Positions 14,687-31,888 are shown, counted from the stretch's first letter. The stretch is 32,000 nt of DNA from Candidatus Nanohalobium constans (GCF_009617975.1 NZ_CP040089.1:941464-973463), one strand, 5' to 3'. Numbers and translations: made by a program. Notes: a model not told the origin generated them from the sequence alone.

Positions 14687-14896
14687 ATGACTACTGTTAC
14701 TATCAGCGAAGATACCCATAGAAAGTTGAAGAAGTTGAAGGAGAAAGAAAAAATCAGCTCTTTTGACGAACTTCTGGATAATATTGCAGAGGAGAAACTG
14801 GACATACCTTCATCCGAAGAGATGTTCGGCTCCATGGAAATTGAAGACAAAGAAGAGATTAGAGATCACGACGACAGAGCCGATAGATATGAGTGA
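14687..14896 (+). CDS. Archaeal VapB-type antitoxin (MTTVTISEDTHRKLKKLK family)
   Basis: 69 aa. The N-terminal TISEDTHRKLKKLKEKEKISSFDELL pattern is typical of small archaeal PIN-associated antitoxins, and the tail is acidic. Its stop overlaps the downstream PIN start. Confidence 0.7.
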   Translation: MTTVTISEDTHRKLKKLKEKEKISSFDELLDNIAEEKLDIPSSEEMFGSMEIEDKEEIRDHDDRADRYE

Positions 14897-15284
14897 ATAC
14901 TTGCTTGACACATGGGCGTGGATAGAGTTCTACATCGGAAGCGAGAAAGGGAAAGAAATTTACCAGAAAATAGAGGAAGCGAAGTGTTACACCTCAATAG
15001 TATCCTTAGCGGAAATGTCTGACAATTACCAGTCAGGAAACCTAAAATCAGACAATAAATGGAGCGAAATTAGAGGCTTTGTAGAGTCTAAAACAGAAGT
15101 AGTGACTTTAACGCCCGAAATATGCGGAAATGCAGGAAAAATAAAACAGCAAGAAAGAGAAAAATTCTCAGACTTCGGACTAATGGATGCAATAATACTG
15201 TCAACCGCCAGAAAAAACGACCTAGAATTAATTACAGGAGACAAACACCTAAAAGATAAAGAAAGAGCAAAAAAGTTAGAATAA
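14889..15284 (+). CDS. PIN-domain toxin (VapC-like)
   Basis: Starting at MSEYLLDTWAWIEF, it has PIN acidic residues in LLDT, SLAE, MDAIIL and TGDKHL. The track ORF start (14763) is an upstream extension that overlaps the antitoxin. Confidence 0.8.
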   Translation: MSEYLLDTWAWIEFYIGSEKGKEIYQKIEEAKCYTSIVSLAEMSDNYQSGNLKSDNKWSEIRGFVESKTEVVTLTPEICGNAGKIKQQEREKFSDFGLMDAIILSTARKNDLELITGDKHLKDKERAKKLE

Positions 15285-15298
15285 AGAGCTGGAATTCA

Positions 15299-16147
15299 TT
15301 ATTGCTTTCTTCTATCCAAGACAGGATTTACATTATCGAAAAATCTGTTTGAACTTGATTTTGCTACCCATACATTATTTTGCTGTATGTTACATTCTAC
15401 ATTGAGATTTTGAAGTATTTGCTGCACCATTTTCTTCTCTTGTTCATCATAGGAGCAGATTCTGGGCGACCCGCAAGGATGAAGATTTCCATCTGAATCG
15501 TATTGTCCTTCGATATATTTCCAGGCCTTCCCTTCTTCAAAAAGCCAATCCACTTTATTTTCCAAATTTTGTAGCCATTCAGCAAGTACTTGTGATGATG
15601 CCCAAACAGCGTCTTTGCCTTCTTTCTGTCCTGTATTAGGATTTAGACCTAAGGCTTTCAGGTTTTCTACAAATTTTTCAGCAAATTCTGAATCTTTGAC
15701 TTCAAGCCCTATTGTGCCGTTATTATCATGAAATCCATCTCCATCAATAACTCCTAGAATATAAGATAAAGATTCAGTTTGCCCGAATTTGACATCAATT
15801 TCATTTTCTTCGGCAAGTTTTCTGCATTTCTCAGCGACCTCTTCACTATTCCTGTATTCTTCTTGGTTTCTTGCTAAACCTAGATCCATTGCCTTGAGCT
15901 TTATGGCATTCCAACTTCTCTCTGGAAGTAATTCTGAAATCTCGGATTTATCTCCAGGATAATTTTCCCTCAATATCCGCTTTTCTTCTTCTGACCACGG
16001 GTCAGCGATATCCGACTTAATATCATATTCGCTCATCCATTTAGAGACAGAAGACTGTGTAACTCCTAATTTTTCACCAATCTGTCTTTGACTCAAATCC
16101 TCATCGTGGTATAACCTGTAAAGCTCTTCAGCGCTTACCTTAGACAT
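15299..16147 (-). CDS. Free-standing LAGLIDADG homing-endonuclease-like protein with N-terminal HTH and Myb/SANT-like modules
   Basis: Two LAGLIDADG-type motifs (YILGVIDGDGF and YIEGQYDSDGN) lie about 90 aa apart. The N-terminus has an HTH (LSQRQIGEKLGVTQSSVSKWM) followed by WSEEEKRILRENYPG...SWNAIKLKAMDLGL (Myb/SANT-like). The gene is AT-rich with T-ending codons, unlike its neighbours. There is no intein or intron host. Confidence 0.75.
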   Translation of the reverse strand: MSKVSAEELYRLYHDEDLSQRQIGEKLGVTQSSVSKWMSEYDIKSDIADPWSEEEKRILRENYPGDKSEISELLPERSWNAIKLKAMDLGLARNQEEYRNSEEVAEKCRKLAEENEIDVKFGQTESLSYILGVIDGDGFHDNNGTIGLEVKDSEFAEKFVENLKALGLNPNTGQKEGKDAVWASSQVLAEWLQNLENKVDWLFEEGKAWKYIEGQYDSDGNLHPCGSPRICSYDEQEKKMVQQILQNLNVECNIQQNNVWVAKSSSNRFFDNVNPVLDRRKQ

Positions 16148-16187: not shown

Positions 16188-17156
16188 TTAGAATGTTCCC
16201 GAAGCCATCAAAGGAACTTTAGACCCTGCTGCCGCAATAGGAACGGCCATGTACCCCAATTTTCTCAATTTATCCATAATCTCCTTGTCGTCTTTGTTTT
16301 GGGCTCTTCCTGCTCTTTCTTTGGTGTTTTCTACATCTTGTAGCCATGCAGGGATTTCATCGCTTTTGTCTGTGGATACTTCGCTTCCTAGGCTTCTGAA
16401 TCCTGCCCAGTACTTTGGTGAAATCGGTACATCGTCTTTGTTGAGTCCTTCCGGCAGATCTTCTTCTGTTTCCGGGTAGCTGTTGATTTCTACTCCTGTG
16501 ATGTCTGGCACCATGTGGAACCAGGATACATCCCATACATCTCTTTCGTCTAGTTGTAGGATGGGGTGTACTCTGATGTGGTCTGGGTCGCTTCTTGGAC
16601 TGTAGAAGTCTTCGTCACCTCTACTTTCGTGTTCGTCCCATCTTACTCCGTTGATCACTGCTTCAATATTGTGGTTTTCAAGCAGTTCGTGCATTGGAAC
16701 TGTTTTGAGAAGGTGGTTTCCTGCTTCTGTATCCATGAGCCATGGTACTTCTTCGTAGTCTCCTACTTCTTCAGCTGCTTCCTGATTTCTGTCGTTGAGT
16801 TCTGCCACAGGTACTTTGTCTCCTGGTTGGTCTGCTTTTTCTATTAGGTCTTCGTTTTTGGCCGTCATTACTTCGAATCCCCAGTTGTCGGCTAGTCTTT
16901 CGACATAGTCTTCGAGTTCGTCGAAGTGTTGTCCGTGGTCTACGAACATGAACTTGGGTTTGTCGAAGCCGTGTTCTTCGCAGACTCTTTTGACAAGCCA
17001 TGCTGTCAGTGTGGAGTCTTTCCCCCCTGTGAATCCGATTACTACATTGTCGGTGTCGTATTCTTCTAGTGCTTGTTTGACGACTTCTTCTCCTGCTCTG
17101 ATTTTAGCTTTTATCGGTGCGTTCTCAATTTCGTCTCGTGTTACAGGTGCTTCCAT
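16188..17156 (-). CDS. PP-loop ATP pyrophosphatase of the PAPS-reductase/CysD family (CysD-like)
   Basis: PP-loop GFTGGKDST. NGVRWDEHESRGDEDFYSPR and IRVHPILQLDERDVWD resemble CysD (GARRDEEKSRAKERxxSFR, RVFPLSNWTExDIW). ERAGRAQNKDDKEIMDKLRKLGYM resembles the CysD C-terminus (ERxGR..DRD...GYF). It has no CysH-type ECG[IL]H motif. ATG 17156 is preferred over TTG 17168. Confidence 0.8.
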   Translation of the reverse strand: MEAPVTRDEIENAPIKAKIRAGEEVVKQALEEYDTDNVVIGFTGGKDSTLTAWLVKRVCEEHGFDKPKFMFVDHGQHFDELEDYVERLADNWGFEVMTAKNEDLIEKADQPGDKVPVAELNDRNQEAAEEVGDYEEVPWLMDTEAGNHLLKTVPMHELLENHNIEAVINGVRWDEHESRGDEDFYSPRSDPDHIRVHPILQLDERDVWDVSWFHMVPDITGVEINSYPETEEDLPEGLNKDDVPISPKYWAGFRSLGSEVSTDKSDEIPAWLQDVENTKERAGRAQNKDDKEIMDKLRKLGYMAVPIAAAGSKVPLMASGTF

Positions 17157-17174
17157 AGATAGTATCAACTCTGT

Positions 17175-19776: not shown

Positions 19777-21072
19777 ATGCACATCTCAGTCGTAGGAACA
19801 GGCTATGTCGGTTTGCCGGCAGGAACAGGATTGGCATCCAGAGGAAACCAAGTCACATGTATAGATATAGACGAAGAAAAAGTAGAGAAGATCAACAATG
19901 GAGACTGTCCAATCTACGAAGAAGATCTTCCAGAATTACTTGAAGAGATGGTTTCTCAAGGAAAACTTTCTGCTACTACAAACACTGCTGAAGCTGTAGC
20001 CGACTCAGATATTACTTTTCTGGCTGTCGGAACGCCGATGAACAATGATGGAAGCATAAATCTAGAGTATATTAAACAGGCTGCTGAAGACGCAGCAGAA
20101 GGAATAAAGGAAAAAGACGGATACCACGTATTCGTCGTTAAATCTACTGTAGTTCCTACAACGACCGAAGAAGAAATAATCCCTATACTAGAAGTAGTTT
20201 CCGGCAAAAAAGCCGGTGAAGACTTCGGGGTATGCATGAACCCGGAATTCCTGAGAGAAGGAACCGCACTAAACGACTTCCTAGAACCAGACAGAATAGT
20301 AATCGGCGAACTAGATGAGAAATCCGGAGACACACTGGAGAAAGTATACTCGGAATTTGATGCACCAATTATGAGAACTTCTCTGAAGGCGGCCGAACTG
20401 ATTAAATATGCTTCCAACTCTCTGCTAGCAACTAAAATTTCATTTATCAACGAGATCGGCAACCTGTGTAAAGAACTTGGTATAGATGTCTACGAAGTAG
20501 CAGACGGAGTTGGAATGGATCACAGAGTCAAAAGAGACTTCCTAGACTCGGGGGCCGGCTTCGGCGGGAGTTGTTTCCCAAAAGATGTGAGAGCACTTGC
20601 TTCATTTATGGAAGATCAAGGAGAAGAACCACGTATACTTGAAGATACAATCTCCGTCAACGAAGACCAGAAAACCAAACTAGTCGAACAGCTCGAAGAC
20701 CACTACCCTGACCTCTCAGGAAAGAAGATCGCAGTATTAGGCCTCTCATTTAAGCCTGGGACTGATGATATCAGACAAAGTCCAGCAATCGATATCATCT
20801 CAGAACTGAAAGAACTCGGAGCACAAATCAAGGCCTATGATCCAAAAGCGATCGAAAACATGAAAGAAAAACATCCGGATGTAGAATACACCTCCAGCTA
20901 CGAAGAAGCTCTGGAAGATACAGACGCAGGTCTCATAGTAACAGACTGGGACGAATTCAACGCCATCGATCGTGGAGACCTACAGACCATGAACAAAGCC
21001 TTACTGCTTGAAGGTCGCAGAATGAGCTACGATGTAGATGAAGAAAACAGAGAGGGTATTACATGGCCATGA
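19777..21072 (+). CDS. ugd: UDP-glucose 6-dehydrogenase (AglM/Ugd-like)
   Basis: MHISVVGTGYVGLPAG NAD-binding motif and catalytic GFGGSCFPKD motif; 431 aa from ATG 19777. The track start at 19549 is an extension that is antisense to the neighbouring gene. Confidence 0.92.
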   Translation: MHISVVGTGYVGLPAGTGLASRGNQVTCIDIDEEKVEKINNGDCPIYEEDLPELLEEMVSQGKLSATTNTAEAVADSDITFLAVGTPMNNDGSINLEYIKQAAEDAAEGIKEKDGYHVFVVKSTVVPTTTEEEIIPILEVVSGKKAGEDFGVCMNPEFLREGTALNDFLEPDRIVIGELDEKSGDTLEKVYSEFDAPIMRTSLKAAELIKYASNSLLATKISFINEIGNLCKELGIDVYEVADGVGMDHRVKRDFLDSGAGFGGSCFPKDVRALASFMEDQGEEPRILEDTISVNEDQKTKLVEQLEDHYPDLSGKKIAVLGLSFKPGTDDIRQSPAIDIISELKELGAQIKAYDPKAIENMKEKHPDVEYTSSYEEALEDTDAGLIVTDWDEFNAIDRGDLQTMNKALLLEGRRMSYDVDEENREGITWP

Positions 21073-21926
21073 GCGAAAACTCTGTACTAGTAATCGCTTT
21101 TGACGGTCTTGACAAAGAACTGATAGAGGAGTTTGATTTAGAGCATGTGAAGCAGGAAGAATACGGCTCTATAGATAACAAGACTGGAATGTCAAGTATA
21201 AAGACTTCAGAACTATTTGCTTCTTTCATAACCGGCAAAACAAGAGAAGAACACGGGATAAAAGGTTTAAAGAAAGAAGAACACTGGCTTCCTTCTTTAA
21301 TACCAAGCAAAGTCGCTCAAAAAGTTAGAGGCGGATATACTGTTAAACAGATTTTAAGAGATATTGCCAAACAAGGCGATAGACAATTCGATAAAAGAGA
21401 TCTAGAGGGCGATAGCATATTCGAAGAAATAGAGAATTCTAAAGCCATGTACGTTCCTGGATATAACCCAAGTCCATTCTGGACTAAACACGGAACAGGA
21501 AGAGATCTCAGAGACTTAAGCATGGAGAAAAGGCCTTGGGGTTACTTTTGGGACGCACATGAACATACCAGACGAAAGAACGAGATTTTTAGACCAGTGA
21601 ATAAATGGCACGACTTCCTGATGGTTCATATATTCAGGCCTGACATGCATCAGCACTGTTATGGAGATCCTAATTTATCGACTTACGATGAAAATAAACT
21701 GGAAGAGTTATACAAAGATACAGATGACCTAGCCGAGGAAATCTTAGAATACTTCTCCGAAGACTACGATACAATTATTTTTATGTCCGATCATGGTTTG
21801 CCTACGGAGAATGGGCATAACGAAAATGCTTTCTACAGTTCCAATAGAGAGTTATTTGGAGAGGAAGTTCCTAAGATTACGGACTTCTATGATAAGATCT
21901 TGGAGATTCAGGACGCTAGGTTATAG
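21063..21926 (+). CDS. Alkaline-phosphatase-superfamily protein, nucleotide pyrophosphatase/phosphodiesterase (NPP)-like, soluble
   Basis: VLVIAFDGLD (metal-site Asp strand), IKTSELFASFITGKTREEHG (aligns with the NPP TxPxHxSxxTGxxPxxHG motif, with Thr kept) and IIFMSDHG. A second ATG at 21069 forms ATGA with the ugd stop. Confidence 0.65.
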   Translation: MAMSENSVLVIAFDGLDKELIEEFDLEHVKQEEYGSIDNKTGMSSIKTSELFASFITGKTREEHGIKGLKKEEHWLPSLIPSKVAQKVRGGYTVKQILRDIAKQGDRQFDKRDLEGDSIFEEIENSKAMYVPGYNPSPFWTKHGTGRDLRDLSMEKRPWGYFWDAHEHTRRKNEIFRPVNKWHDFLMVHIFRPDMHQHCYGDPNLSTYDENKLEELYKDTDDLAEEILEYFSEDYDTIIFMSDHGLPTENGHNENAFYSSNRELFGEEVPKITDFYDKILEIQDARL

Positions 21927-23103
21927 TTTTTCTGAAGCTCTCCTCTATAACCTCAATATTTTTGGCAATATCATAGTCCTCAACTATTTTTCTTCGAGCC
22001 TCTCCACCCATTTCCTCTCTTGTCTCTTTTGACTGTATAAGTTTGGAGAGTTTCTCGCTTAGTACTTCAGGGTTCTTTGGCTCTGCCAAGAGACCATCTT
22101 TTCCGTCTTCTATCAGTTCCGGTATGGCTGATACAGTGGTTGATACAGAAGGTGTTTCTAAAGCCATTGCTTCTTTGAGAACCATCGGCATAGCGTCGAG
22201 ATCACCGCTCTCTGCTTCTACGCATGGGAGGATGAAGGCCTTTGCTTCTTCTATCTGTTTCTTTAGTTCTTGGTCGGAGATATAGCCCATGAAGTTGATA
22301 TCCTCTCTTACTCCAAGCTCCTCCGATAGTTGTTTGAGTTCGTTTTCGAGTTCTCCCTCTCCAATAATAGTGTACTCGAGTTCTGGATAGTCTTCTTTCA
22401 ACTCTGCGAAGGCCTTTATTCCATATTTGAATCCTTTTTTCTCTACAAGCCGGCCTACAGAGACTATCTTGTTTTTCTCTTTAAGGCCTTTAGGTTCGAA
22501 CTTTTCAGGTCTTATAGATACGGGCACTATATCAATAGATTTTTCAAGCGAGAATTCTTCTCTGAGATAGTTTCTGTTGTACTCTGAAACTGTGACTATC
22601 TTTTGAGGATATCGTAGTAATTTGCTGCCTTGTTCTTTTCTTCCCTTCTTGAATATATCTGCGGCGTGTACCTCAATAACCCAAGGTACAGAATAAATCG
22701 AAGAAAGGTGTTCTACAGAATATTTATTGTTATGGGCAAAATGAGTCATTAAAATGTCTGGATCATAATCTGAGCCATCCAAAATTTTGCTCATCTGTTT
22801 GGTACGATAGAGATTCTTTATCTTCTCTTTAATCATCGTTTCCGTTTTTGGCAAGCTAACTAGCGCCTTTACATCTTTTTTAGTTGTAGGTAGAGCTTTA
22901 TAGATACTCTTCTTTCTTATAGAATCTATATAATGAACTTCTGCTGCTATGTTAGACAGTTCATCGTGTTCAATATCCTCTTCGGGATTATTGAAGGCAA
23001 TAATTTTTATCCGATGACCTCTCTTCTCTAACTGATAAATTTCATTTAGAATAAAGGTCTCTGAAACTTTTGGGAAGTTACCGAGAATATATAGTATCTT
23101 CAT
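21916..23103 (-). CDS. Glycosyltransferase family 4 (GT-B, Glycos_transf_1)
   Basis: The C-terminal EAESGDLDAMPMVLKEAMALETPSVSTTVSAIPELIEDGKDGLL is the E-x7-E retaining GT4 signature; 395 aa. Confidence 0.9.
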   Translation of the reverse strand: MKILYILGNFPKVSETFILNEIYQLEKRGHRIKIIAFNNPEEDIEHDELSNIAAEVHYIDSIRKKSIYKALPTTKKDVKALVSLPKTETMIKEKIKNLYRTKQMSKILDGSDYDPDILMTHFAHNNKYSVEHLSSIYSVPWVIEVHAADIFKKGRKEQGSKLLRYPQKIVTVSEYNRNYLREEFSLEKSIDIVPVSIRPEKFEPKGLKEKNKIVSVGRLVEKKGFKYGIKAFAELKEDYPELEYTIIGEGELENELKQLSEELGVREDINFMGYISDQELKKQIEEAKAFILPCVEAESGDLDAMPMVLKEAMALETPSVSTTVSAIPELIEDGKDGLLAEPKNPEVLSEKLSKLIQSKETREEMGGEARRKIVEDYDIAKNIEVIEESFRKTIT

Positions 23104-23927
23104 TTTTTCAAACCTTTAATTTTCTCAATTGTTCTTTCAATAGTTTCTTTTATACCATACCACTTTAGCGCGGAATATAGTTTATCCCAAGACCTTGGGT
23201 TGATTTTTTTGATTTTTAGATTATTTCTTTTGAGATAATGGACTCTTGAACTTGTTTTATTGTTGAGTTGTTTTTGAGCTTTTTCTGGCATTACTGTGAA
23301 TCTGTACCCTATTGTATCAAATTTGTCTAGTCTTCCGTGTAGTATTTTTGCCTCGTTGTAGAGGTATCCTGGTATTCCGAATCTGCAGTTGTATTCAGAG
23401 GGTATTGTTGTAAAGTCTACATCGGAGTAATATAGGGCTTTCCTGAATACTGGTTGGTCTCTGTGGCTTTCGTATGACCGGTCTTCATATAGTTCTTTCC
23501 AGTCATCGAAGAGCTGTTGAACGTCGTCCGTCTTACGGTAGCTTATCACTCCCGTATTTAGTTCCGAAAATGTTGGTGGAACATCCTCCATCTCTTCTGA
23601 TGCTCTCTGAGGCGCTCTTCTAATCGCTAGCTCAAATTGATTTAGCACATCAAAGAGTTCATTGATCTCGTCTACTACATAGGTGTCAGTATCAAGGTAT
23701 AGTGTTCTATCATAAGGTGTTTTTTCCAATAAGTAAATCTTATCGCTTCCTTTCCCGGGATCATCAACAACTATATTTTCATCAATAAAGTCATACTGCT
23801 TCTCTTCTAAAGTTATTAGAGTTATAGGCACATCATTTGTCTTTTTCAGCTGCTTAGCTGATTTTTCAAATTCTCTAAAGTAGTTTTCTTCAGTGACTAT
23901 ATAGACAACTCCTTCTGAATCTTTCAT
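23100..23927 (-). CDS. GT-A nucleotide-diphospho-sugar transferase, GT8-like
   Basis: YDRTLYLDTDTYVVDEINELF (DxD) and LNTGVISYRK resemble GT8. It has no TM segment; 275 aa. Confidence 0.6.
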   Translation of the reverse strand: MKDSEGVVYIVTEENYFREFEKSAKQLKKTNDVPITLITLEEKQYDFIDENIVVDDPGKGSDKIYLLEKTPYDRTLYLDTDTYVVDEINELFDVLNQFELAIRRAPQRASEEMEDVPPTFSELNTGVISYRKTDDVQQLFDDWKELYEDRSYESHRDQPVFRKALYYSDVDFTTIPSEYNCRFGIPGYLYNEAKILHGRLDKFDTIGYRFTVMPEKAQKQLNNKTSSRVHYLKRNNLKIKKINPRSWDKLYSALKWYGIKETIERTIEKIKGLKK

Positions 23928-23932
23928 TTTTA

Positions 23933-25258
23933 CTATTCAACTCTCCATTCATACAGTACTTTTGCTTTGCTTTTCAATTCAGTGGCTTTATCCAGATCCA
24001 TTTTTTCGTTTTCTGTTAAGACCTCTGATTTCCAGACGTATTCACCTTCTGTGGTTAGGTCATATTTTATTTCTGAATTAATTAAAGAGAAGCTTTTGCG
24101 GTTGTAGATTTGTTCGCATCCTTCCGGTATTTTTCTTCCAAATTGTTGGACGAACCCTTTTCTGCCGAAGTATTCTGAGTTAAGTATTTCCCGGGATTCT
24201 ACCTCGCTGTCTTGAATGAGGCCGTGAATTATGTCTATCATTTCTGTGTGGCTGTAGAGACCTCTTTCATCAATCTCCAAGTCTAGTTCTCTACCTTTGC
24301 TGAAGATGATGCAAGGTACTTCTACGAGTTCTTTGTAGGTGCCGAGGTGGTGGCCTATTAGCTTGGTTCCTTGCTTTTCGTATTCTCCTATCAGTTCTCC
24401 ATGATCACCAAGAACAATGAAGACTGTATTCTCTGGAGCTTCTCTGTAGAAGTTTCTTATTTTTCTGTCGGCATATCTTATCGAGGCCTTGTATGCTTTC
24501 TGTCGTATATCGAGCTTGGTGTCCGAGAATCCTTCCGGCAGGTAATCTTCGAGGACCTTAGTCTGTGAGGCGTCTAGTACCTCTTCTTCAGAATAATCGG
24601 ATAGATATGACTCCCTGTCTTCTTCGTCAAATGTGTAAGGCGAGTGTACCGGCATGATGTTGGCGAATACGAATTCATCTTTCTCGGATTTGAGTTTCTT
24701 GTTCGCTTCTTCTAGAGTTCTTACTGTTTTCCCCGAGTTGTGGTCTGCTTCTCTTGAGGTGAACTTATCGGTTATGTGTCGGAAGAAACTTTTAGCTGAA
24801 TCAATATCTCGTTTCTTTATAGTCTTCTTGAAGAAGTAGCTGTATTTTTCTTTTCTGCCGGAGAATTCGTCGTCTTTCTGCCAGATCTCTTTCCAAGTAT
24901 CTCCTCCGAGGTCTTCAGTTGTCTGTACAAACTGCTGGAATCCCTCGCTGAACCCTGTTTCCTCTGTTATCAAATGGTTCTCTGTGAAGGCAGAGGTACT
25001 AAATCCTTTTGACACAAGCATCGATGTCAACATGTTCTCTTCGCTGAAATAGGTGTTTTCTGTCGTTGTTCCATGTTCTGAGGATAGCTTCCCTGAGAAA
25101 AGTGATGCGTGCGCTGGCACAGTCCAGGGAGAGTTAGCGTAGTAGTTTTCCAAATGAAGACCTTCTTCCGATTTCTCAGATAGGAATGGAGCTATCGAAT
25201 TATCTTTTACAAAATCTTTCTTTCTCCAGGTATCGACAACTAAGAGAACTATATTCAT
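23933..25258 (-). CDS. Sulfatase-fold alkaline-phosphatase-superfamily protein with Thr nucleophile motif (phosphodiesterase/phosphotransferase-like, not a formylglycine sulfatase)
   Basis: NIVLLVVDTWR, NSPWTVPAHASLFSGKLSSEHG (TxPxH...G....EHG as in NPP-type enzymes, with no C/S-x-P-x-R motif) and FIVLGDHGELIGE; 441 aa with no TM segment. Confidence 0.7.
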   Translation of the reverse strand: MNIVLLVVDTWRKKDFVKDNSIAPFLSEKSEEGLHLENYYANSPWTVPAHASLFSGKLSSEHGTTTENTYFSEENMLTSMLVSKGFSTSAFTENHLITEETGFSEGFQQFVQTTEDLGGDTWKEIWQKDDEFSGRKEKYSYFFKKTIKKRDIDSAKSFFRHITDKFTSREADHNSGKTVRTLEEANKKLKSEKDEFVFANIMPVHSPYTFDEEDRESYLSDYSEEEVLDASQTKVLEDYLPEGFSDTKLDIRQKAYKASIRYADRKIRNFYREAPENTVFIVLGDHGELIGEYEKQGTKLIGHHLGTYKELVEVPCIIFSKGRELDLEIDERGLYSHTEMIDIIHGLIQDSEVESREILNSEYFGRKGFVQQFGRKIPEGCEQIYNRKSFSLINSEIKYDLTTEGEYVWKSEVLTENEKMDLDKATELKSKAKVLYEWRVE

Positions 25259-26175
25259 TTGAAAACCCTTTTGACCTTCACAGCTATATTTATGAGATCT
25301 TTACCTGTCAGTCTCCTGAAAAGATATAGAACAAATAAAGCATAAGCCTCTAGCTCTAGAGAGTTATTTCTGATAGTTTTAGACAAGTGTTTTTCAGTTC
25401 CTCTGTTATCTCTCAGAGTGTACTGTTTCTTGGCTCTGTTAAGGTGGTGCCGGGCCTTTACTTTTGATCCGGCTTTTTCTAGTAGATCTGAGTGTTTTTC
25501 TGTTATCTTTTCTCGTCCTTCTGTTGCTACGTCCACCTGGCTGCTTTTGGAGTCGTCGCTTTGATGATAACGAACTAGAGGTTCATTGATATAGCCGAAC
25601 TCTGCTTCGTTTTCTATCAGTCTTATCCATAGGTCCCAGTCTTCTCCACTTGGAATATCTTCATCAAAACCGTTTATTTCTTCTAGAACCTCTTTCTTAA
25701 CTGAAACTTTGGAGGGCGAACCTATTTTGTCTCTTTCAAGTATCTGTTCAAGACCTAGCTTTTCTTCCTTCCTTACGATATCTTGAACCTCTCCGTCTCT
25801 GTACGCCTCTATAGCTGAGTATACTGCATCGTAATTGTTTTGCTTGAAATCTTCTGCTTCTTTCTCTAGCTTTTCTGGTTTCCATTCATCATCGTCATCT
25901 AGGAAAGCAATATATTTTCCAGAAGCATTTTGTATGCCGAGGTTTCTGGCAGATGAAACACCTTGCGCATTGTCGTTAATGTGTCTTTCCAGGTCAATAT
26001 CCTTGTCAAGACTTTCAACTATCTCTTTAACCTTCTCTTTATCTTCTTGTTCAGGATTGTCATCTACCACTATCAGCTCAAAGTCGGTGTAGGTCTGTGA
26101 TATAATACTTTCAAGAGCTCTCTCCAGCTTTTCATCTCTCTTATAGGTTGGAACTATTACGGAGAACTTAATCAT
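25255..26175 (-). CDS. Glycosyltransferase family 2 (GT-A)
   Basis: FSVIVPTYKRDEKLERALESIISQTYTDFELIVVDDNP and FLDDDDEW (DxD). ATG 26175 is preferred over GTG 26184. Confidence 0.9.
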   Translation of the reverse strand: MIKFSVIVPTYKRDEKLERALESIISQTYTDFELIVVDDNPEQEDKEKVKEIVESLDKDIDLERHINDNAQGVSSARNLGIQNASGKYIAFLDDDDEWKPEKLEKEAEDFKQNNYDAVYSAIEAYRDGEVQDIVRKEEKLGLEQILERDKIGSPSKVSVKKEVLEEINGFDEDIPSGEDWDLWIRLIENEAEFGYINEPLVRYHQSDDSKSSQVDVATEGREKITEKHSDLLEKAGSKVKARHHLNRAKKQYTLRDNRGTEKHLSKTIRNNSLELEAYALFVLYLFRRLTGKDLINIAVKVKRVFK

Positions 26176-27013
26176 CAACCGCACCTTTCACTTCTAACCA
26201 AGGCACTTCAACAAGTTCTTTTTCTTTTCTTCCTATGCTGTGGCCCCATCCTCCTTCTCCTAGTAGTTCTCCGTGGTCTGATGTGACTATTATTTTGCCT
26301 TCTAGTTGTTCTACTAGTTTTTCTACTTGTTCTAAGGCTAGCCTGAGGTCTTCTGTGTAGTATTGTTTGACTTGTTCTTCGCCTTGTTCTCTGGCTAGTT
26401 TTTCGTAGTTGTTTCCTAGCCCCAGTATTTCCTTAACTTTGGTCTGGAATCTGTAAGGTGTTAATTCGAATAAAGGGTTCCAGATCGGCCTTGTTGTATC
26501 CAGTATTTTCCTCAGTGTTGATTCTTCTTCGTCTTCTAGTTTGTTTTTTGGCGCCCAGTCGAAGTCTGTTTCTCCTAGTGAGATGAACGGTCTGTGTGGC
26601 TGTATGAAGTGTATTATCGTCTTTGAACCATCTAGGTTTTCTTCAGCTGTCTTCCTGAAGTCTTCTGGTCTTACTGTGTTTATTTCTTCGTCCCAGTCGT
26701 GTATCCAGGAGTCGACTATGTTCGTGAATTTGTCGGCTGCACTCCAGTCCCGGTCTTGACCGCTGACAAGATCTCCCAGTGACAGACCTTGGCCGTTGAT
26801 GTATGGGTTGGCGGAGATGTAGTTGTAGTTATATCTTCTGCCGTCGAAAGTGTTCCACAGCCATTCTGGTGTTGCGGAGCCTCTACTCTTGACTTTCTTC
26901 AGGTCGCCCTCTAGAAAGCCCTCATAGTTGTCTCTGAAGTAGTCGTATCTACATGCGTCTAGGATGATGAGGTAGTCCCAGTCTGTTCCGTGGATGTCTT
27001 GTTTCTGCGTCAT
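26168..27013 (-). CDS. Alkaline-phosphatase-superfamily protein (sulfatase/NPP-like), soluble
   Basis: From MTQKQDIHGTDWDYLIILDACRYDYF: SATPEWLWNTFDG (T-x5-N-x3-G) and IIVTSDHGELLGEGGWGHS. ATG 27013 forms ATGA with the PIN stop. The track start at 27136 is an extension across the PIN gene. Confidence 0.6.
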   Translation of the reverse strand: MTQKQDIHGTDWDYLIILDACRYDYFRDNYEGFLEGDLKKVKSRGSATPEWLWNTFDGRRYNYNYISANPYINGQGLSLGDLVSGQDRDWSAADKFTNIVDSWIHDWDEEINTVRPEDFRKTAEENLDGSKTIIHFIQPHRPFISLGETDFDWAPKNKLEDEEESTLRKILDTTRPIWNPLFELTPYRFQTKVKEILGLGNNYEKLAREQGEEQVKQYYTEDLRLALEQVEKLVEQLEGKIIVTSDHGELLGEGGWGHSIGRKEKELVEVPWLEVKGAVDD

Positions 27014-27420
27014 TCTTGTCCTCTCAATTCTAAGAATTTTTGTGGCTTTACTATTGTTATATTTTCGTATTCTTTTAGTTCTAGTAGGTCCGAGTCTCCG
27101 GAAATTATGTAGTCTGCATTGGCGGATACTGCGCATTCGAGAAATTTGTTGTCTTCAGGATCTTGTGATTTATCTATAGACTCTTCTGAACTGATGAATA
27201 GGAATTCAGATACCAGTATTTCCAGGAACTTTTGCTGCTCTTTTTCCGAAAAGTCAAACTTGTCGTATTCCAGGACTTCTGATACCTCATCAATCATTGA
27301 CTGTGTGGCAAAAGCATCTATTTCTTCTCCGAGAGCTAGTTCTAGGCATTCTTCTGGTTTGGCGTCCCAACCAATAGCTGAAATCAAGACATTTGTGTCT
27401 AAAACTACTTTCTCGCCCAT
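27010..27420 (-). CDS. PIN-domain toxin (PIN_3/TIGR00305-like)
   Basis: VVLDTNVLISAI...DPEDNKFLECAVSANADYIISGDSDLLEL is the characteristic family pattern; 136 aa. Confidence 0.85.
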   Translation of the reverse strand: MGEKVVLDTNVLISAIGWDAKPEECLELALGEEIDAFATQSMIDEVSEVLEYDKFDFSEKEQQKFLEILVSEFLFISSEESIDKSQDPEDNKFLECAVSANADYIISGDSDLLELKEYENITIVKPQKFLELRGQE

Positions 27421-27659
27421 TCTATCGCGTCCTCAATCTCTTCTTTCTCTAAACCTTCTTCCTGGAATCTTTCCTGGACTTTGTTGCTCAGTTTCTCATA
27501 CTCCTCTTTAACATCAAAGCTGATTTTCTTGAACATCACACCATCTTCAACCTGGACTGCTATGAAGCGATCAGAAGGGCTGAAATCAGCCTTGTCACGG
27601 ATATCCTTAGGTACAACGAGCTGACCCTTGGGCGACATCTTCACTATATCCTCACTCAT
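27405..27659 (-). CDS. AbrB/MazE/SpoVT-type antitoxin
   Basis: MSPKGQLVVPKDIRDKADF is a swapped-hairpin motif; 84 aa. It overlaps the PIN start by 16 nt. Its promoter region has a palindromic operator. Confidence 0.8.
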   Translation of the reverse strand: MSEDIVKMSPKGQLVVPKDIRDKADFSPSDRFIAVQVEDGVMFKKISFDVKEEYEKLSNKVQERFQEEGLEKEEIEDAIEWARK

Positions 27660-27676
27660 AGTTTAACAGTTAAACT
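27660..27676. promoter_or_regulatory. 17-bp palindrome AGTTTAAC-A-GTTAAACT: putative AbrB antitoxin operator
   Basis: It directly abuts the antitoxin start codon (27657-27659) and lies between that codon and the TTTAAA box at 27685-27690. Confidence 0.5.
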
Positions 27677-27684
27677 GTAAAACA

Positions 27685-27690
27685 TTTAAA
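27685..27690 (-). promoter_or_regulatory. Putative TATA box (TTTAAA) of the AbrB-PIN-glycan operon
   Basis: The centre is 28.5 nt upstream of ATG 27659. It lies in the only sizeable non-coding gap (27660-27805) upstream of seven tightly packed genes. Confidence 0.45.
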
Positions 27691-27760
27691 TCTTAGGCTA
27701 ATTTCACAGCAGTTATAACCCGATATAAGAATCATGCCAAGCAGGTTTTAACCCTACTAA

Positions 27761-27773
27761 AGTTTAAACTGTT
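27761..27773. promoter_or_regulatory. AGTTTAAACTGTT box (self-palindromic AGTTTAAACT core), function unknown
   Basis: It is 12/13 identical to the flippase-promoter box at 17408-17420 and shares TTAAACTGT with the operator at 27660-27676. Confidence 0.3.
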
Positions 27774-27805
27774 CCTACTCTAACCCTGCCAAAATTTAGA
27801 AAGTA

Positions 27806-28624
27806 TTATTTCTCAAATTTCTCAATCAAATCCTTGAAAGATTTATCAGCCACAACCTTAACATTCTCATACTTTTCTGACAGCCATTCTGCGAAGTTTT
27901 CCTGGTGTCCTCCTGCATGATCCGATGGTCTTACCAAGACTTTTTCTGCAAGGTTTGCTGCTTCGTAAGAAGCCATTCCTCCACGAGTTACAACTGTCTC
28001 AGTCCTACCCATAAGGTCAAGGAACTCTTCATGTGATATGTCCTTCCAGTATTTTTCCTGTAGTTCCGGGTCGTTGCTGGAGGGTATGACAAGCAGTTCA
28101 TTGTCTTTTTCATCGGATTCATGTTCTGAAAAGTCCCTGTACTGTATTATCTGCTTGTTCTCAACTTTGTCAGTGTGATACTTGTCAAGTAGTTCGTCTT
28201 GTGAAACCCAGACTCTGACAGATGAGAATCTGCTGAGGATTTTTGGTGTCAGGCTAGGCTGTTTTGTCCTGTTTTCTGCTTCTACTGCTATAACTTCTAT
28301 CCTTTTTAGAGCAGCTATTAAACCGATCGGAAAAGAGGTGTTGGCTCCGTAAACTGCTACTTTCTCTGGTTTCTCTTTCTTAAGTATTTTCCAGCTTCGA
28401 TAGAAGTTCTTCAAAGCCCTTATAGGCCTGTAGAACTTTCCGCCTGTAGGTCTCCAGCTAGGTGCTCTGTAAACTTTTTGTGCAAAATCGTAGTCATATT
28501 CATCGTCTCGATCTGTAACCACGATATACTCTGGATCTTCTATTTCTTCCTCTATCCTAGCTTTGACTGCTGGCGTTGCTGTTGCGTGCCCACTGTGCCT
28601 AGAACCTAGAATGATTTTTGTCAT
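27806..28624 (-). CDS. Fused Alg14-like / Alg13-like (Glyco_tran_28_C) glycosyltransferase
   Basis: The N-terminal half (IILGSRHSGHATAT, KPEKVAVYGANTSFPIGLIAALKRIEVIAVEAENRTKQPSLTPKIL) follows the Alg14 pattern (GSGGHT...kPd.vi.nGp....P....a.......yvES.aRv...SltGK). The C-terminal half (TVVTRGGMASYEAANLAEKVLVRPSDHAGGHQENFAEWL) follows the Alg13/MurG C-terminal pattern (shaGagsi.Eal..gkP.ivvP......HQ..nA). 272 aa with no TM segment. Confidence 0.6.
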   Translation of the reverse strand: MTKIILGSRHSGHATATPAVKARIEEEIEDPEYIVVTDRDDEYDYDFAQKVYRAPSWRPTGGKFYRPIRALKNFYRSWKILKKEKPEKVAVYGANTSFPIGLIAALKRIEVIAVEAENRTKQPSLTPKILSRFSSVRVWVSQDELLDKYHTDKVENKQIIQYRDFSEHESDEKDNELLVIPSSNDPELQEKYWKDISHEEFLDLMGRTETVVTRGGMASYEAANLAEKVLVRPSDHAGGHQENFAEWLSEKYENVKVVADKSFKDLIEKFEK

Positions 28625-29355
28625 GGTTTCAGCTTCTTCAAGTAGTTCTTAGCGACATTTACTATTGAGCTGCCGGCTGCTTGTTCTATGTGATATATAT
28701 TTGCGTCCGGGATTTTCTCGTTGTTCCATTCGAATACATGTTCTTTCTTAGTCATGGGCTGAGTGTGATGTCCTGAAACAGCTAGTGCTAAAGCGTACTG
28801 TTCGTGATGGTTGACCTTGCCCTGGCTTTCAAGATCAGAGTTCACATATCTGACCCATTTATCCTGTATTTCCTGATGGAGACCGTTCTTGAATATCAAG
28901 AACCCTGCGTTCGGCATCCAGTCCATGTATTCCTCACCGTGTTCCTCGAACAGGTCTTCCCAGTTCTCCAGATCGGCTGAACCGGGTCGGGCCTTGAACT
29001 CGAAGTCTCCTTCTATTACTTCCCATATATCGTTGCCTATTACTGTATCGCAGTCCAGAAATACGACATTCTCCGACTCTAGAGAACAAAGGTTGATTTT
29101 CTCACCGTAGTGGCTTTCTGGTAAACTTCTGGAGACATTGAATGCTTCCGTCTGGTTCTCTTTTTTGATTATTTCTGCCCCAGTATCCTTCAAAGCTTCT
29201 TCGTCTTCTTTGTCGTATGGTGGAGTGTAGAATATCTTGATTTTCTCCGGTTCTACATGTTGTTTGAGTGTGGCTATGCTTCTGAGGCATTGTTGAACCA
29301 TGTTTTTCCTGCTGGATAGTGTGTATACGAAGACGGTGTTTTGTTTAATTTCCAT
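28621..29355 (-). CDS. GT-A nucleotide-diphospho-sugar transferase, GT8-like (paralogous in type to 23100-23927)
   Basis: ENVVFLDCDTVIGNDIWEV (DxD) and WMPNAGFLIFKNG; 244 aa. ATGA overlap with the downstream Alg14/13-like gene. Confidence 0.55.
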   Translation of the reverse strand: MEIKQNTVFVYTLSSRKNMVQQCLRSIATLKQHVEPEKIKIFYTPPYDKEDEEALKDTGAEIIKKENQTEAFNVSRSLPESHYGEKINLCSLESENVVFLDCDTVIGNDIWEVIEGDFEFKARPGSADLENWEDLFEEHGEEYMDWMPNAGFLIFKNGLHQEIQDKWVRYVNSDLESQGKVNHHEQYALALAVSGHHTQPMTKKEHVFEWNNEKIPDANIYHIEQAAGSSIVNVAKNYLKKLKP

Positions 29356-29367
29356 TGTAATATCTGT

Positions 29368-29748
29368 TTATGAGCTTGTTATCTCTTTCATTTCTTGAAT
29401 GAATTTTTCGGCATTGTCTCTCATATCGAGTTTATCGTATTCTATTTTTGCATCAGGATCGTAGTCTATTTCCTCCCTTGCTGTTTTTATTCTGGAAAAG
29501 AACTTGGCATCTTCACTTTCTATTAGATTTTCATCCTTGTAGAGAACTTTGCCTACTAGGCTGTCAACACCTTCGTGAGTCTTAGGTTCGAAACCTTTGC
29601 TTAGTAAGACAGATTTAGCTGCATAGAAGATAGAATAGTAAAGCGAGTTCCAGTACATCCTATCTGATATTCCTTTAACTCTTTTGAGGTCATTTAGTGA
29701 CTCTTCAGCTAAATCCATAAATTTCTCAGATTCAGACATATAGTTCAC
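29368..29748 (-). CDS. HEPN-domain protein (toxin partner of MNT)
   Basis: 126 aa, all-helical, with YYSIFYAAKSVLLSKGFEPKTHEG and a C-terminal R-x-x-x-D-Y region typical of HEPN. It overlaps the upstream nucleotidyltransferase gene by 17 nt. Confidence 0.75.
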   Translation of the reverse strand: MNYMSESEKFMDLAEESLNDLKRVKGISDRMYWNSLYYSIFYAAKSVLLSKGFEPKTHEGVDSLVGKVLYKDENLIESEDAKFFSRIKTAREEIDYDPDAKIEYDKLDMRDNAEKFIQEMKEITSS

Positions 29749-30055
29749 CGGTCGATCTGACCTCTCGTCCGTATACCGTGTTCTTCATTTCTTCGTATTC
29801 TTTTTCAGTCTTTACTATAGGTGAGAAAGATATGCCGTACTGAATACCTATTTCAAAAGCTATGTCTCGGAGTTTTTCCTTTTGATCAGTGACCTCAACC
29901 ACTGCGAGAATATCTACATCTGACTGCTCTGTCTGTTGATCACAGGCCACGCTACCATACAGGAACAGTTTATCCAGTGAATCGCCTAGTTCTTTCTGTG
30001 CTTGTTCTGCGAATTGTTCAAATGCTTTTCTGTGAGGTAGTTCCGACATAATCAA
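29732..30055 (-). CDS. Minimal nucleotidyltransferase (MNT) antitoxin partner of HEPN
   Basis: LFLYGSVACDQQTEQSDVDILAVV is the GS-x(n)-DxD pol-beta nucleotidyltransferase motif; 107 aa. Confidence 0.85.
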   Translation of the reverse strand: MIMSELPHRKAFEQFAEQAQKELGDSLDKLFLYGSVACDQQTEQSDVDILAVVEVTDQKEKLRDIAFEIGIQYGISFSPIVKTEKEYEEMKNTVYGREVRSTGELYV

Positions 30056-30132: not shown

Positions 30133-30429
30133 TTAAAATCTGTCAGATATTTCTTCCTCAGGATAACCAGGTTCTCTGTAGAATATGCTGTAAATCCTTA
30201 TGTTGCCATTTTCTATATCATATATGGCTATGTGGTCGTTTTTGCCCATTCTTTCTTCTTTTATTTCTAACCTGTATATGTCTCTTCCTTTAATCTGGAT
30301 TAGTTTGGCGTCAGCATGGTTTGTTGGATCGTCTTTGAGTTCCTCAATCTTTTCTTTAATAACCTTTAGTTGTTCTTTCTCTAACTCTTTAAGCTCTTTT
30401 TCTGCTCCTTCAACGAAGTCAATGTTCAT
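30133..30429 (-). CDS. RelE/ParE-family toxin
   Basis: 98 aa. The pattern IDFVEGAEKELKELEKEQLKVIKEKIEELKDDP...IYRLEIKE...HIAIYDIENGNIRIYSIFYRE matches the ParE/RelE fold pattern. ATGA overlap with the upstream RHH gene. Confidence 0.7.
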   Translation of the reverse strand: MNIDFVEGAEKELKELEKEQLKVIKEKIEELKDDPTNHADAKLIQIKGRDIYRLEIKEERMGKNDHIAIYDIENGNIRIYSIFYREPGYPEEEISDRF

Positions 30430-30674
30430 TCCTTGATCCCTAGATTTTCCCAGACTTCATCTGCTGGAGTAGTCTCAAGCTCTCCCTTCTTTTCTTTCTC
30501 CCAGACTTCCAAAATCCTTTCAACTTCTTTAGGGTATAGTTTTGTCTCTCGTTTCAGTTTCTCTCTTATAGCCTCTCGCACCCACTCAGAGGGAGAAGGA
30601 TAGTTCTCTTTCTCAGCTGTTTCTTCTATCTGTTTTTTCTGGTCATCCGGTACTCTAACATTTATCGAACCCAT
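30426..30674 (-). CDS. Ribbon-helix-helix (CopG) antitoxin
   Basis: GSINVRVPDDQKKQIEETAEKENYPSPSEWVREAIREKL is a classic RHH; 82 aa. Confidence 0.8.
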   Translation of the reverse strand: MGSINVRVPDDQKKQIEETAEKENYPSPSEWVREAIREKLKRETKLYPKEVERILEVWEKEKKGELETTPADEVWENLGIKE

Positions 30675-30884: not shown

Positions 30885-31040
30885 TTAGGCCATCCTGGAC
30901 AGTATTCCGAAGATTGTGCCGAAGATTGAGATCAGTGTTCTGAAGAATCCGACGATTAGTGTTGATATGAAGTTGGCGAGCATTTTCTTGTTTCGAGAAG
31001 GTCCATGATCTGAATGACCGTGATCTCCGTGTCCGCTCAC
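30885..31040 (-). CDS. Unlisted 51-aa His-rich single-TM mini-protein (hypothetical)
   Basis: Hand translation gives (GTG)MSGHGDHGHSDHGPSRNKKMLANFISTLIVGFFRTLISIFGTIFGILSRMA*. A TAAAAA box (31065-31070 on the + strand) lies about 27 nt upstream of the GTG. The codons are A/C-ending like the core genes. At under 60 aa it is absent from the track. Confidence 0.35.
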   Translation of the reverse strand: MSGHGDHGHSDHGPSRNKKMLANFISTLIVGFFRTLISIFGTIFGILSRMA

Positions 31041-31110: not shown

Positions 31111-31130
31111 TTCCACATGAAATCAGGGGG
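31111..31130. repeat. Left arm of an 18/20 inverted repeat (TTCCACATGAAATCAGGGGG)
   Basis: Its reverse complement CCCCCTGATTTCATGTGGAA matches 31869-31888 (CCCCCTGATTTCGTATGGAA) at 18 of 20 positions, including 12 contiguous. Confidence 0.6.
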
Positions 31131-31373
31131 TCGAGAAGTTCTATATAGATCGAACACATTCAAAGAAGTATACAAAAGATTCGAGTAAATTCGAAAAGAG
31201 TTTAGAATAGTTTATTGAGAACAAAGTAATTTTTCTAGCTAAATTAGAATCAATATCCGTCAGAAAGTTTTCGAAACAAGAGTTGTAACCCACTGGTAAA
31301 CCAGTTTAAAAGAGGTTCATTGTTCGCTAAGAATTAACTTTAGAGAAGTCTAAAACAAAGATTATGACCTGGT

Positions 31374-31817
31374 CTAGAAATCAGTTAAAGCCATATTTGA
31401 ACCTCCAAATGAGCTAAATTTGAGATCCTTAAAGTTTGATTTATACTCAGAGTACTTATCCAACTGTTCAGAATCCTTAGGAACCCATAAACACTGGACA
31501 CTTGGTATATTTTCTGGAGAAAAAACCAAAGAGTACAATCTCTGCAATTTTTTGTCCATACAAAGCACAACCAAGTTTAAACCTTCATAACGGACATCCA
31601 AGCGACCATTTTTGCTACCGGATGCTGTTATATTCTTTTTAGTATTACCATCCGTGTAAATAACTGTCTTTATTTGAATAAGTGCTATTTCATTATCTTT
31701 CACTGCCAACATGTCTACACCCTGATCTATGTCAGGCTTAACTGTTGAATATCCCTTTGAAGCCATTATCTTTGCCAATTCATGATAGCCTATTTCGCCT
31801 CTAGAAGCGTCAATCAT
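31374..31817 (-). CDS. PD-(D/E)XK-fold nuclease-like protein (Hjc/DUF4365-like core)
   Basis: GEIGYHELAKIMASKGYSTVKPDIDQGVDMLAVKDNEIALIQIKT fits E...D-x(n)-(E/Q)-x-K with a DxGvD...vQ(I/V)K pattern. 147 aa. An AT-rich box lies about 29 nt upstream. Confidence 0.55.
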   Translation of the reverse strand: MIDASRGEIGYHELAKIMASKGYSTVKPDIDQGVDMLAVKDNEIALIQIKTVIYTDGNTKKNITASGSKNGRLDVRYEGLNLVVLCMDKKLQRLYSLVFSPENIPSVQCLWVPKDSEQLDKYSEYKSNFKDLKFSSFGGSNMALTDF

Positions 31818-31868
31818 GTACTATAGTGCAGATTATACACTAAAATACTAATTGAATTTGACCTGCCA

Positions 31869-31888
31869 CCCCCTGATTTCGTATGGAA
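31869..31888. repeat. Right arm of the 18/20 inverted repeat
   Basis: See the left arm. Both arms lie in non-coding DNA on either side of the PD-(D/E)XK gene. Confidence 0.6.

Follow-up and report, generated by a model that had tools for sequence, protein, structure and literature searches.

An AbrB-PIN toxin-antitoxin cassette as a probable old insertion in a stop-start coupled surface-glycan operon of Candidatus Nanohalobium constans

The AbrB-PIN pair and its place in the glycan block

The stretch of Candidatus Nanohalobium constans DNA analysed here (GCF_009617975.1, NZ_CP040089.1:941464-973463; 32,000 nucleotides (nt), called the window, with positions counted from its first letter) is overall a surface-glycan region, encoding AglB/STT3, a flippase, sugar-nucleotide enzymes and many transferases. 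On its minus strand, an AbrB/SpoVT-type antitoxin gene and a PIN toxin gene form a toxin-antitoxin (TA) pair directly before five glycan genes. An earlier note, made from the sequence alone, had taken this pair for the translationally coupled leader of a five-gene glycan-modification operon. Comparison with related loci suggests that the pair is an old insertion into a junction within an older operon, to which it brought a promoter and an operator of its own.

Read in the direction of transcription, the block consists of the antitoxin gene (27405-27659; 84 amino acids, aa), the PIN_3 (VapC-like) toxin gene (27010-27420; 136 aa), a gene for an AP-superfamily protein (26168-27013; 281 aa, with a Sulfatase match of 15.8 bits, below cut-off), called AP hereafter, a GT2 glycosyltransferase gene (25255-26175; PF00535, 116 bits), a gene for a sulfatase-fold protein that is also of the AP superfamily (23933-25258; 441 aa, PF00884, 89.6 bits), a GT8/nucleotide-diphospho-sugar transferase-like gene (23100-23927; weak Pfam matches of 19.9-20.4 bits, below cut-off) and, as the final gene, one for a GT4-type glycosyltransferase (21916-23103; PF00534, Glycos_transf_1, 138 bits). 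In the layout of open reading frames (ORFs), this last gene is convergent with a plus-strand gene at 21063-21926. The junctions from AbrB to GT4 measure, in order, -16, -4, -8, -4, +5 and -4 nt: the antitoxin and toxin genes overlap by 16 nt, the toxin stop and the AP start share the ATGA at 27010-27013, AP and GT2 overlap by 8 nt, the ATGA at 25255-25258 is common to GT2 and the sulfatase-fold gene, a gap of 5 nt leads to the GT8-like gene, and the latter meets GT4 in the ATGA at 23100-23103. A non-coding spacer of 146 nt (27660-27805) lies upstream of the antitoxin gene.

This seven-gene order with all six junctions, and the spacer with its TTTAAA box and 17-bp palindrome, agree with the earlier description in the ORF and sequence check. 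The family calls hold as well, those for PIN_3, GT2, Sulfatase and Glycos_transf_1 being secure, while four assignments, namely the AbrB domain, the AP-like gene and both GT8-like genes (the second is introduced below), miss the curated cut-offs. The tight junctions leave no room for a terminator and physically fuse the TA pair to the downstream glycan genes, as had been claimed. The block does not start at the pair, though: past the spacer, the same strand carries a further two glycan genes and another two TA pairs, up to position 31040. Directly upstream of the spacer lies a gene for an Alg14/PssD-like glycosyltransferase subunit (27806-28624, minus strand; PF08660, 21.7 bits, and NF041549, 54.5 bits, both below cut-off), which shares an ATGA overlap with a further, upstream GT8-like gene (28621-29355, minus strand; match below cut-off) whose position is conserved in all relatives.

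Comparison with related loci

Contigs encoding AP orthologues with 57-88% identity served as the comparison set. Looking up the exact PIN sequence in the contig index gave no match, nor did a contig scan that used AP alone as the query yield a relative. The alignment-based AP scan returned 80 loci, mostly distant AP homologues of other archaea or bacteria with SG9 as the only nanohaloarchaeon, and AbrB or PIN was nearby in none of these 80; a metagenome scan gave seven loci, one of which (L105) was informative.

The relatives share a conserved layout, in which PolD and Orc1/Cdc6 (on the opposite strand) are followed, after a gap of about 0.6 kb, by a 50-aa gene, the GT8-like gene, the Alg14-like gene, AP and a variable set of glycan genes. 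Seven lineages (SG9, Haloredivivus G17, L010, L011/12, L013, L101 and L103) have no TA pair there, and in six of the seven the Alg14-like gene overlaps the start of AP by 4-11 nt; in G17 and L011, this overlap uses the very ATGA (ATGAC) that opens AP in most lineages. TA-less L013 carries an AP paralogue of 264 aa (L013:7203-7997) between the Alg14-like gene and AP, which is another use of the same junction. In five lineages (the window, L001-4/L099, L005, L014/15 and L016/17), AbrB-PIN sits exactly at the junction of the Alg14-like gene and AP, and in all five the toxin stop overlaps or abuts the AP start codon (ATGA or TAAATG).

Since seven TA-less lineages have the Alg14-like gene upstream of AP, the gene arrangement indicates that AbrB-PIN is an insertion into an older, stop-start coupled glycan operon and not its ancestral leader. 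The ATGA junction belongs to the resident AP start and did not evolve together with the toxin gene, as it also closes the Alg14-like gene in G17 and L011 and a HEPN-like gene in L105. The role of an ancestral leader of five genes finds no support, given that the pair sits in mid-operon and AP is coupled to the Alg14-like gene where the pair is missing. Nor does the pair travel with the five glycan genes. AP is its only constant downstream neighbour, AbrB-PIN-AP being common to all five TA lineages; GT2 orthologues of about 70% identity occur only in L005 and L001/L003 and sulfatase-fold orthologues of about 70% identity in L005 and L003, in each case with other genes interposed, so that these two genes accompany the pair in two of the four other TA lineages. 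The downstream GT8-like and GT4 genes are specific to the window among the TA-bearing loci, where no close GT8-like orthologue was found elsewhere, and the stretch from AbrB to GT4 does not recur as a conserved unit in related genomes.

Identity, competence and age of the pair

The toxin assignment is firm: PF13470 (PIN_3) matches with 72.8 bits and TIGR00305 with 79.4 bits against a cut-off of 29.15, and the residues D8, E45, D90 and D109 are invariant across 33 homologues. A Foldseek search with its AlphaFold2 (AF2) model (pLDDT 89) retrieved VapC2 (3zvk), Shigella VapC (5ecw) and VapCs of M. tuberculosis with TM scores of 0.60-0.66. The top fold match in the PDB, above these classical VapC toxins, is PcrIIC1 (8wmm_G, E 8e-6, 21% identity), a Cas9-associated factor. 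The PDB sequence search with the toxin returned a spurious PPR-repeat as its sole match, and the fold search was used instead. The antitoxin combines a putative N-terminal AbrB-like domain with an acidic C-terminal tail. Its profile placed the archaeal AbrB regulators 5itm, 2l66 and 5itj on top in the PDB, with non-significant E values of about 0.07-0.08, and several of its close homologues have a precomputed PF04014 match. These signs agree on an AbrB domain, though none reaches a curated threshold. Both proteins are 100% identical to Ca. N. constans proteins that NCBI already names, as ‘putative toxin-antitoxin system toxin component, PIN family’ and as ‘AbrB/MazE/SpoVT family DNA-binding domain-containing protein’. 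The overlapping two-gene layout with the antitoxin first is also found in four intact nanohaloarchaeal orthologues and in the outside homologues. The 84-aa AbrB family, taken at an identity of at least 60%, is widespread in halophile metagenomes, and across the nanohaloarchaeal lineages the antitoxin varies less (83-88% identity) than the toxin (70-75%). In every respect that the sequence can address except autonomy, the pair appears to be a VapBC-type type II TA system, and the PIN protein is presumably toxic.

Both genes are under purifying selection, with a dN/dS of 0.12-0.17 for the toxin at a dS near saturation and a pN of 0.07 for the antitoxin. Toxin identity among the five TA lineages (68-84%) tracks that of AP and the Alg14-like protein (69-83%), and the insertion is therefore old. 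A recent neutral insertion, the scenario against which the earlier note had set its own reading, does not fit a pair that is both old and under purifying selection.

One lineage, L001-4/L099, has a broken antitoxin gene. A deletion of 1 nt after CCTAAA shifts the frame within the DNA-binding domain and leads to a TAG stop; it is present in five contigs (L001:6196-6447, L002:7962-8215, and also L003, L004 and L099) that fall into two sequence variants (GGGG and GGGGG). The toxin gene and the promoter are intact in this lineage, and a C-terminal ORF of 43 aa is left, with GAGGA 9 nt before its ATG. Decay of the toxin gene after the frameshift was also considered, but the three non-synonymous versus zero synonymous differences between the two variants are too few for a conclusion.

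Promoter and operator of the cassette

The TTTAAA box, a TATA-like element of the TA promoter (27685-27690, minus strand), is separated from the AbrB start codon by 25 nt and is kept at the same distance as TTTAA(A/G) in L005, L014, L016 and L001. Most genes that lead an operon in the window likewise have an A/T-rich box at -31 to -25, and the matching spacing of the AbrB promoter predicts a leaderless AbrB transcript.

Between box and start codon lies an operator-like element of three tandem 8-bp repeats (27660-27683, minus strand), which read GTTTTACA (27676-27683), GTTTAACT (27668-27675) and GTTAAACT (27660-27667) in the window, a perfect threefold GTTTAACT in L016, and GTTTTACA GTTTAACT GTTTAACT in L005 and L014; they can still be made out in L018, the Halobellus homologue. 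The 38 nt before the AbrB start codon show 79-92% identity among the lineages, as against 50-65% identical codons at conserved residues, and farther upstream the identity falls to 20-45%, the level of unrelated sequence. The cassette common to these lineages accordingly begins about 38 nt upstream of the AbrB start codon, and its promoter-operator is under purifying selection. An AbrB-type TA pair with a promoter-operator of its own, as proposed before, is thus borne out by the good conservation of box and repeats in the relatives.

The palindrome emphasised in the earlier note, AGTTTAAC-T-GTTAAACT (27660-27676; 8+1+8), lies inside this repeat element and arises from a single T-to-A change in the third repeat. 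An arm of at least 8 nt was obtained in 65 of 5000 dinucleotide shuffles of the spacer, and three such palindromes occur in the 32-kb window, so that a chance origin is moderately improbable. As the alignment of the five lineages shows it only in the window, it was rejected as a conserved operator and is best seen as a lineage-specific by-product; what the relatives keep are the direct repeats, and the predicted operator is the set of three between the TATA box and the ATG.

Transcription across the block

As the available sigma-70 promoter and terminator scanner is unsuited to an archaeon, TATA-box spacing and oligo-T runs were inspected directly. No run of at least five T was found on the sense strand between 21324 and 31519, a stretch of 10.2 kb with all spacers counted, as against dozens on the antisense strand; this lack is partly compositional, the sense strand being A-rich. 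The whole block thus seems to contain no obvious archaeal terminator. The spacer before the antitoxin gene has only a T4 run in the window, which makes read-through from upstream promoters likely, whereas in L001 and L016 runs of T5-T6 follow the Alg14-like stop, ahead of the TA promoter. No conserved TATA-like box was found at -31 to -25 of AP in L001, L005, L014 and L016. As gaps, oligo-T runs and a conserved internal TATA box are all lacking, the TA genes are very likely co-transcribed with the downstream glycan genes, and, since the upstream genes are on the same strand with no oligo-T run, the transcription unit may be longer than AbrB to GT4. Measured as an autonomous unit, the pair has its own promoter but not its own end, because the toxin stop overlaps the AP start. 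The SVXNc transcriptome table lists no PIN gene in its origin-proximal glycan cluster, which has no bearing on co-transcription.

Further TA modules at the operon head

Two more TA modules stand upstream on the same strand. An MNT/HEPN module (29368-30055; PF01909, 29.8 bits, and PF05168, 43.7 bits), with MNT at 29732-30055 and HEPN at 29368-29748, ends 12 nt upstream of the upstream GT8-like gene and is thus a second TA pair leading glycan genes. It is preceded by a module (30133-30674) of a ribbon-helix-helix (RHH) antitoxin (30426-30674; PF01402, 32.9 bits) and a 98-aa ParE/RelE-like protein (30133-30429), which overlap by an ATGA. The 98-aa protein of the window has no significant match, and its counterpart in L014, an orthologue judging by position and equal length and not by direct comparison, matches ParE_toxin with 24.1 bits; the L014 pair has the same sizes and the same position, and the upstream sequence ATGTAAAACATTTGT.AAGTAT.TGTGTTACA is conserved. 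The operon head of the window therefore holds three co-oriented TA modules of different families within about 4 kb.

Other TA families use the same junctions in the relatives. L105, by the N-terminus of AP the closest relative (88% identity), has a different TA pair at the junction of the Alg14-like gene and AP (L105:281-1310), composed of a 204-aa winged helix-turn-helix MNT protein and a 145-aa HEPN-like protein, with the stop codon of the latter gene again overlapping the start of AP. Orthologues of these two proteins (69% and 80% identity) form a pair in L014 (L014:1830-2863), located there at the junction of the GT8-like and Alg14-like genes. In L005, the spacer that separates the AbrB promoter from the Alg14-like gene harbours an AAA_14/DUF4143 ATPase gene (L005:8058-9290). 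The three co-oriented modules of the window, along with the other TA families at the same junctions elsewhere, point to the operon-head junctions as a hot spot of TA insertion and not to a designed regulatory front end. Two more PIN-domain ORFs were seen in the glycan region, at 14011-14370 (minus strand) and 14763-15284 (plus strand), with PF01850 matches of 28.2 and 54.2 bits; no partner antitoxins were identified for these two.

The AP-like protein, the glycan context and the probable origin

The AP-like protein is 100% identical to one annotated as hypothetical in Ca. N. constans. In the alignment of AP-like homologues, D19, T48, D246 and H247 are invariant. The AF2 model (pLDDT 89) finds its best fold matches, with weak TM scores of 0.40-0.51, in the phosphoethanolamine transferases MCR-1, EptA and EptC, and a profile search of the PDB gave no match. 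The modelled fold suggests a transferase or hydrolase of phospho-substituents and not a formylglycine sulfatase. AP-like proteins occur widely among archaea (Bathyarchaeia, Thermoplasmata, haloarchaea) and pass no Pfam or NCBIfam model. The glycan cluster also encodes an HTH/LAGLIDADG-like protein (15299-16147, minus strand) and a PAPS-reductase-fold protein (16188-17168, minus strand), and the latter is a hint that the glycans undergo sulfur or sulfate chemistry.

Upstream of the TA modules, a 51-aa membrane protein gene (30885-31040, minus strand) is the orthologue of the 50-aa gene that opens the cluster in the relatives. Beyond it, two inverted 21-nt boxes, TTCCACATGAAATCAGGGGGT (31111-31131) and ACCCCCTGATTTCGTATGGAA (31868-31888), lie 736 nt apart and resemble archaeal origin-recognition boxes (ORBs). 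As Orc1/Cdc6 and PolD are found immediately past the position of these ORB-like boxes in the relatives, the region 31111-31888 is probably oriC. An ORF of 147 aa between the boxes (31374-31817) has no family match and may be spurious.

Discussion

We consider AbrB-PIN to be a VapBC-type cassette that was inserted into the junction of the Alg14-like gene and AP and has been kept as a tolerated, self-maintaining passenger, a reading to which we assign a probability of about 0.7. The cassette would have arrived with its own leaderless TATA promoter and three-repeat operator, and its target would have been a pre-existing, conserved, origin-proximal surface-glycan operon of the Nanohaloarchaeota. 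TBP and TFB would use the TTTAAA box, with a start at or next to the AbrB ATG, and by analogy with other VapBC and MazEF systems AbrB, alone or together with PIN, would bind the repeats at about -24 to -1 and repress the promoter. Transcripts from the TA promoter, along with read-through from upstream, would continue into AP, GT2, the sulfatase-fold gene, the GT8-like gene and GT4. The cassette may survive because it is co-oriented, gives promoter activity instead of polarity and is addictive, and it would be one of three such passengers in the operon head of Ca. N. constans. Autoregulation and any effect on glycan expression are inferred here, and a dedicated regulatory role is unproven.

Several points weigh against this reading. 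Most of the relatives are unlabelled metagenomic contigs, assigned to the Nanohaloarchaeota by synteny and identity. The AbrB domain falls short of the curated models (PF04014, 22.9 bits against a cut-off of 24.7; TIGR01439, 27.6 against 28.3). The A-rich stretch ACAAAAATT at -30 to -23 of the AP ATG in the window could be a weak internal promoter, and long retention under purifying selection in five lineages would also be expected of a domesticated function. On neighbour-joining (NJ) trees of the flanking genes, finally, TA-bearing lineages are interleaved with TA-less ones at branch supports of 0.3-0.9; a single clean gain on the flanking-gene tree was looked for and dropped, the trees being poorly resolved. 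With so patchy a distribution and such low supports, one old insertion followed by losses and a spread by recombination through the conserved flanks are indistinguishable.

The nearest known relatives outside the group accord with a foreign source. The closest non-nanohaloarchaeal homologues of the toxin, with 59% (L018, Halobellus rubicundus) and 53% identity, belong to autonomous AbrB-PIN bicistrons, the former near the conjugation genes TrbL, TrbC and DUF932 and the latter near a TnpB-like fragment, which fits an acquisition from mobile DNA of the haloarchaeal community. The Halobellus locus resembles that of the window in its antitoxin (72% identity), its 16-nt overlap (19 nt in the metagenomic AbrB-PIN loci L106 and L107) and its related TTTAAA box with GTTTAA-type repeats before a leaderless ATG. 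In contrast to the window, all three of these loci have 80-110 nt of non-coding sequence or a convergent gene downstream and do not lie inside a biosynthetic operon. Known VapBC systems with an AbrB/SpoVT antitoxin and a PIN toxin likewise have the antitoxin first, four acidic residues and operator repeats before the start codon. They are free-standing bicistrons, however, while in the window the toxin gene ends across the start codon of a glycan gene, with no terminator after it; the window further differs in its operator of three direct 8-bp repeats instead of a conserved palindrome and in an antitoxin that is more conserved than the toxin.

TA pairs co-transcribed with a further downstream gene are familiar from the TAC systems with their HigBA-SecB-like chaperone. 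There, the extra gene serves the TA pair, whereas the downstream genes of the window are older, of unrelated function, and exist without the pair in related genomes. The closest functional analogue is found in the chromosomal integrons of Vibrio, where TA cassettes with their own promoters occur within arrays of promoterless cassettes (PMC11014356), co-linear with the other members of a promoter-dependent array. They are thought to stabilise the array and can add downstream transcription (PMC11014356; PMC13108822). The host array differs here in being a conserved biosynthetic operon of stop-start coupled genes in a DPANN archaeon; Pfam scans of the window showed no integrase-like ORF, and attC-type sites, for which no systematic search was made, are not evident.

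The Vibrio cassettes, documented as stabilising large arrays, lend some plausibility to the idea that AbrB-PIN and its two neighbouring modules protect the origin-proximal glycan island from deletion or replacement, their fusion to the operon being incidental. Three TA families within about 4 kb head a cluster whose distal part is highly variable, and the closest outside relatives reside on mobile elements, where TA pairs serve maintenance. Yet AbrB-PIN, flanked by the Alg14-like gene and AP, is inside the conserved head and does not border the variable part, and the TA-less lineages keep this head equally well, so that we regard such stabilisation as possible but not probable.

The regulatory front end favoured in the earlier note would make the AbrB-controlled promoter the main, stress-responsive promoter from AP to GT4, with degradation of the antitoxin derepressing glycan remodelling. 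Purifying selection on promoter-operator and both genes in five lineages speaks for it, as does the missing conserved TATA box before AP, and the T5-T6 runs in L001 and L016 could cut off transcription from upstream and leave the downstream genes reliant on the TA promoter. Against this stand the seven related lineages that run the same genes without the pair, the unrelated TA pair of L105 at the same junction and further ones at others, the mere T4 in the spacer of the window, which permits read-through, the differing genes after AP among the TA lineages, and the persistence of the arrangement in L001-4, where the DNA-binding half of AbrB is frameshifted. A TA promoter that feeds glycan genes thus stays plausible, while a purpose-built regulator of five genes finds no support next to TA-less relatives and an insertion hot spot, and we consider domestication to this end rather unlikely. 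A more speculative variant, to which we give still less credence, is that the junctions are landing pads for unrelated TA pairs that have been co-opted as modular, antitoxin-gated promoters, one stress- or virus-responsive switch per glycan segment. If true, the AbrB-PIN promoter would be indispensable for the AP segment, explaining its retention in five lineages, including the one with the broken antitoxin.

It is improbable that AbrB-PIN is an autonomous TA unit, transcribed alone, with the promoter of AP to GT4 in the 3′ end of the toxin gene and the overlap a mere result of tight packing in a genome of 0.97 Mb. In the final 60 nt of the toxin gene there are indeed A/T-rich stretches, AAAATATAAC at about -50 to -41 and the already mentioned one at -30 to -23, but neither is conserved at promoter distance in L001, L005, L014 and L016, no oligo-T run follows the toxin gene, and in every genome without the pair, AP is an internal cistron coupled by overlap. 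Equally doubtful is a role in antiviral abortive infection, in which PIN would be released upon infection and the module would be co-located with receptor-varying glycan genes, its fusion to them having no regulatory meaning. The gathering of HEPN/MNT, ParE-like, PIN and AAA_14/DUF4143 genes by a variable glycan cluster does recall a defence or variability island, and the best fold match of the toxin is Cas9-associated. The argument is one by association; no phage-sensing component was identified, however, in an analysis that did not search the PADLOC library. That the toxin processes the operon mRNA, for instance by splitting the TA part from the glycan part, is very improbable. All that favours it is that the transcript encodes a protein with an RNase fold; lineages lacking the pair express this operon all the same, no conserved structured site was seen at the junction, where none was looked for, and characterised VapC toxins mostly target tRNA or rRNA.

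The TA genes are ordinary in themselves and carry annotations already; what is new is the architecture revealed by comparison: one conserved, origin-side operon of a reduced DPANN genome has repeatedly taken up co-oriented TA modules of different families at its junctions. The lineages form a natural series with no TA pair, an intact one, one with a broken antitoxin and a different one at the same site. Such a series could be used to test whether TA promoters feed host operons, and whether promoter donation, as opposed to addiction or stress control, is the reason why chromosomal TA systems persist. For this obligate ectosymbiont, the surface glycans encoded here likely matter for contact with its host and with viruses.

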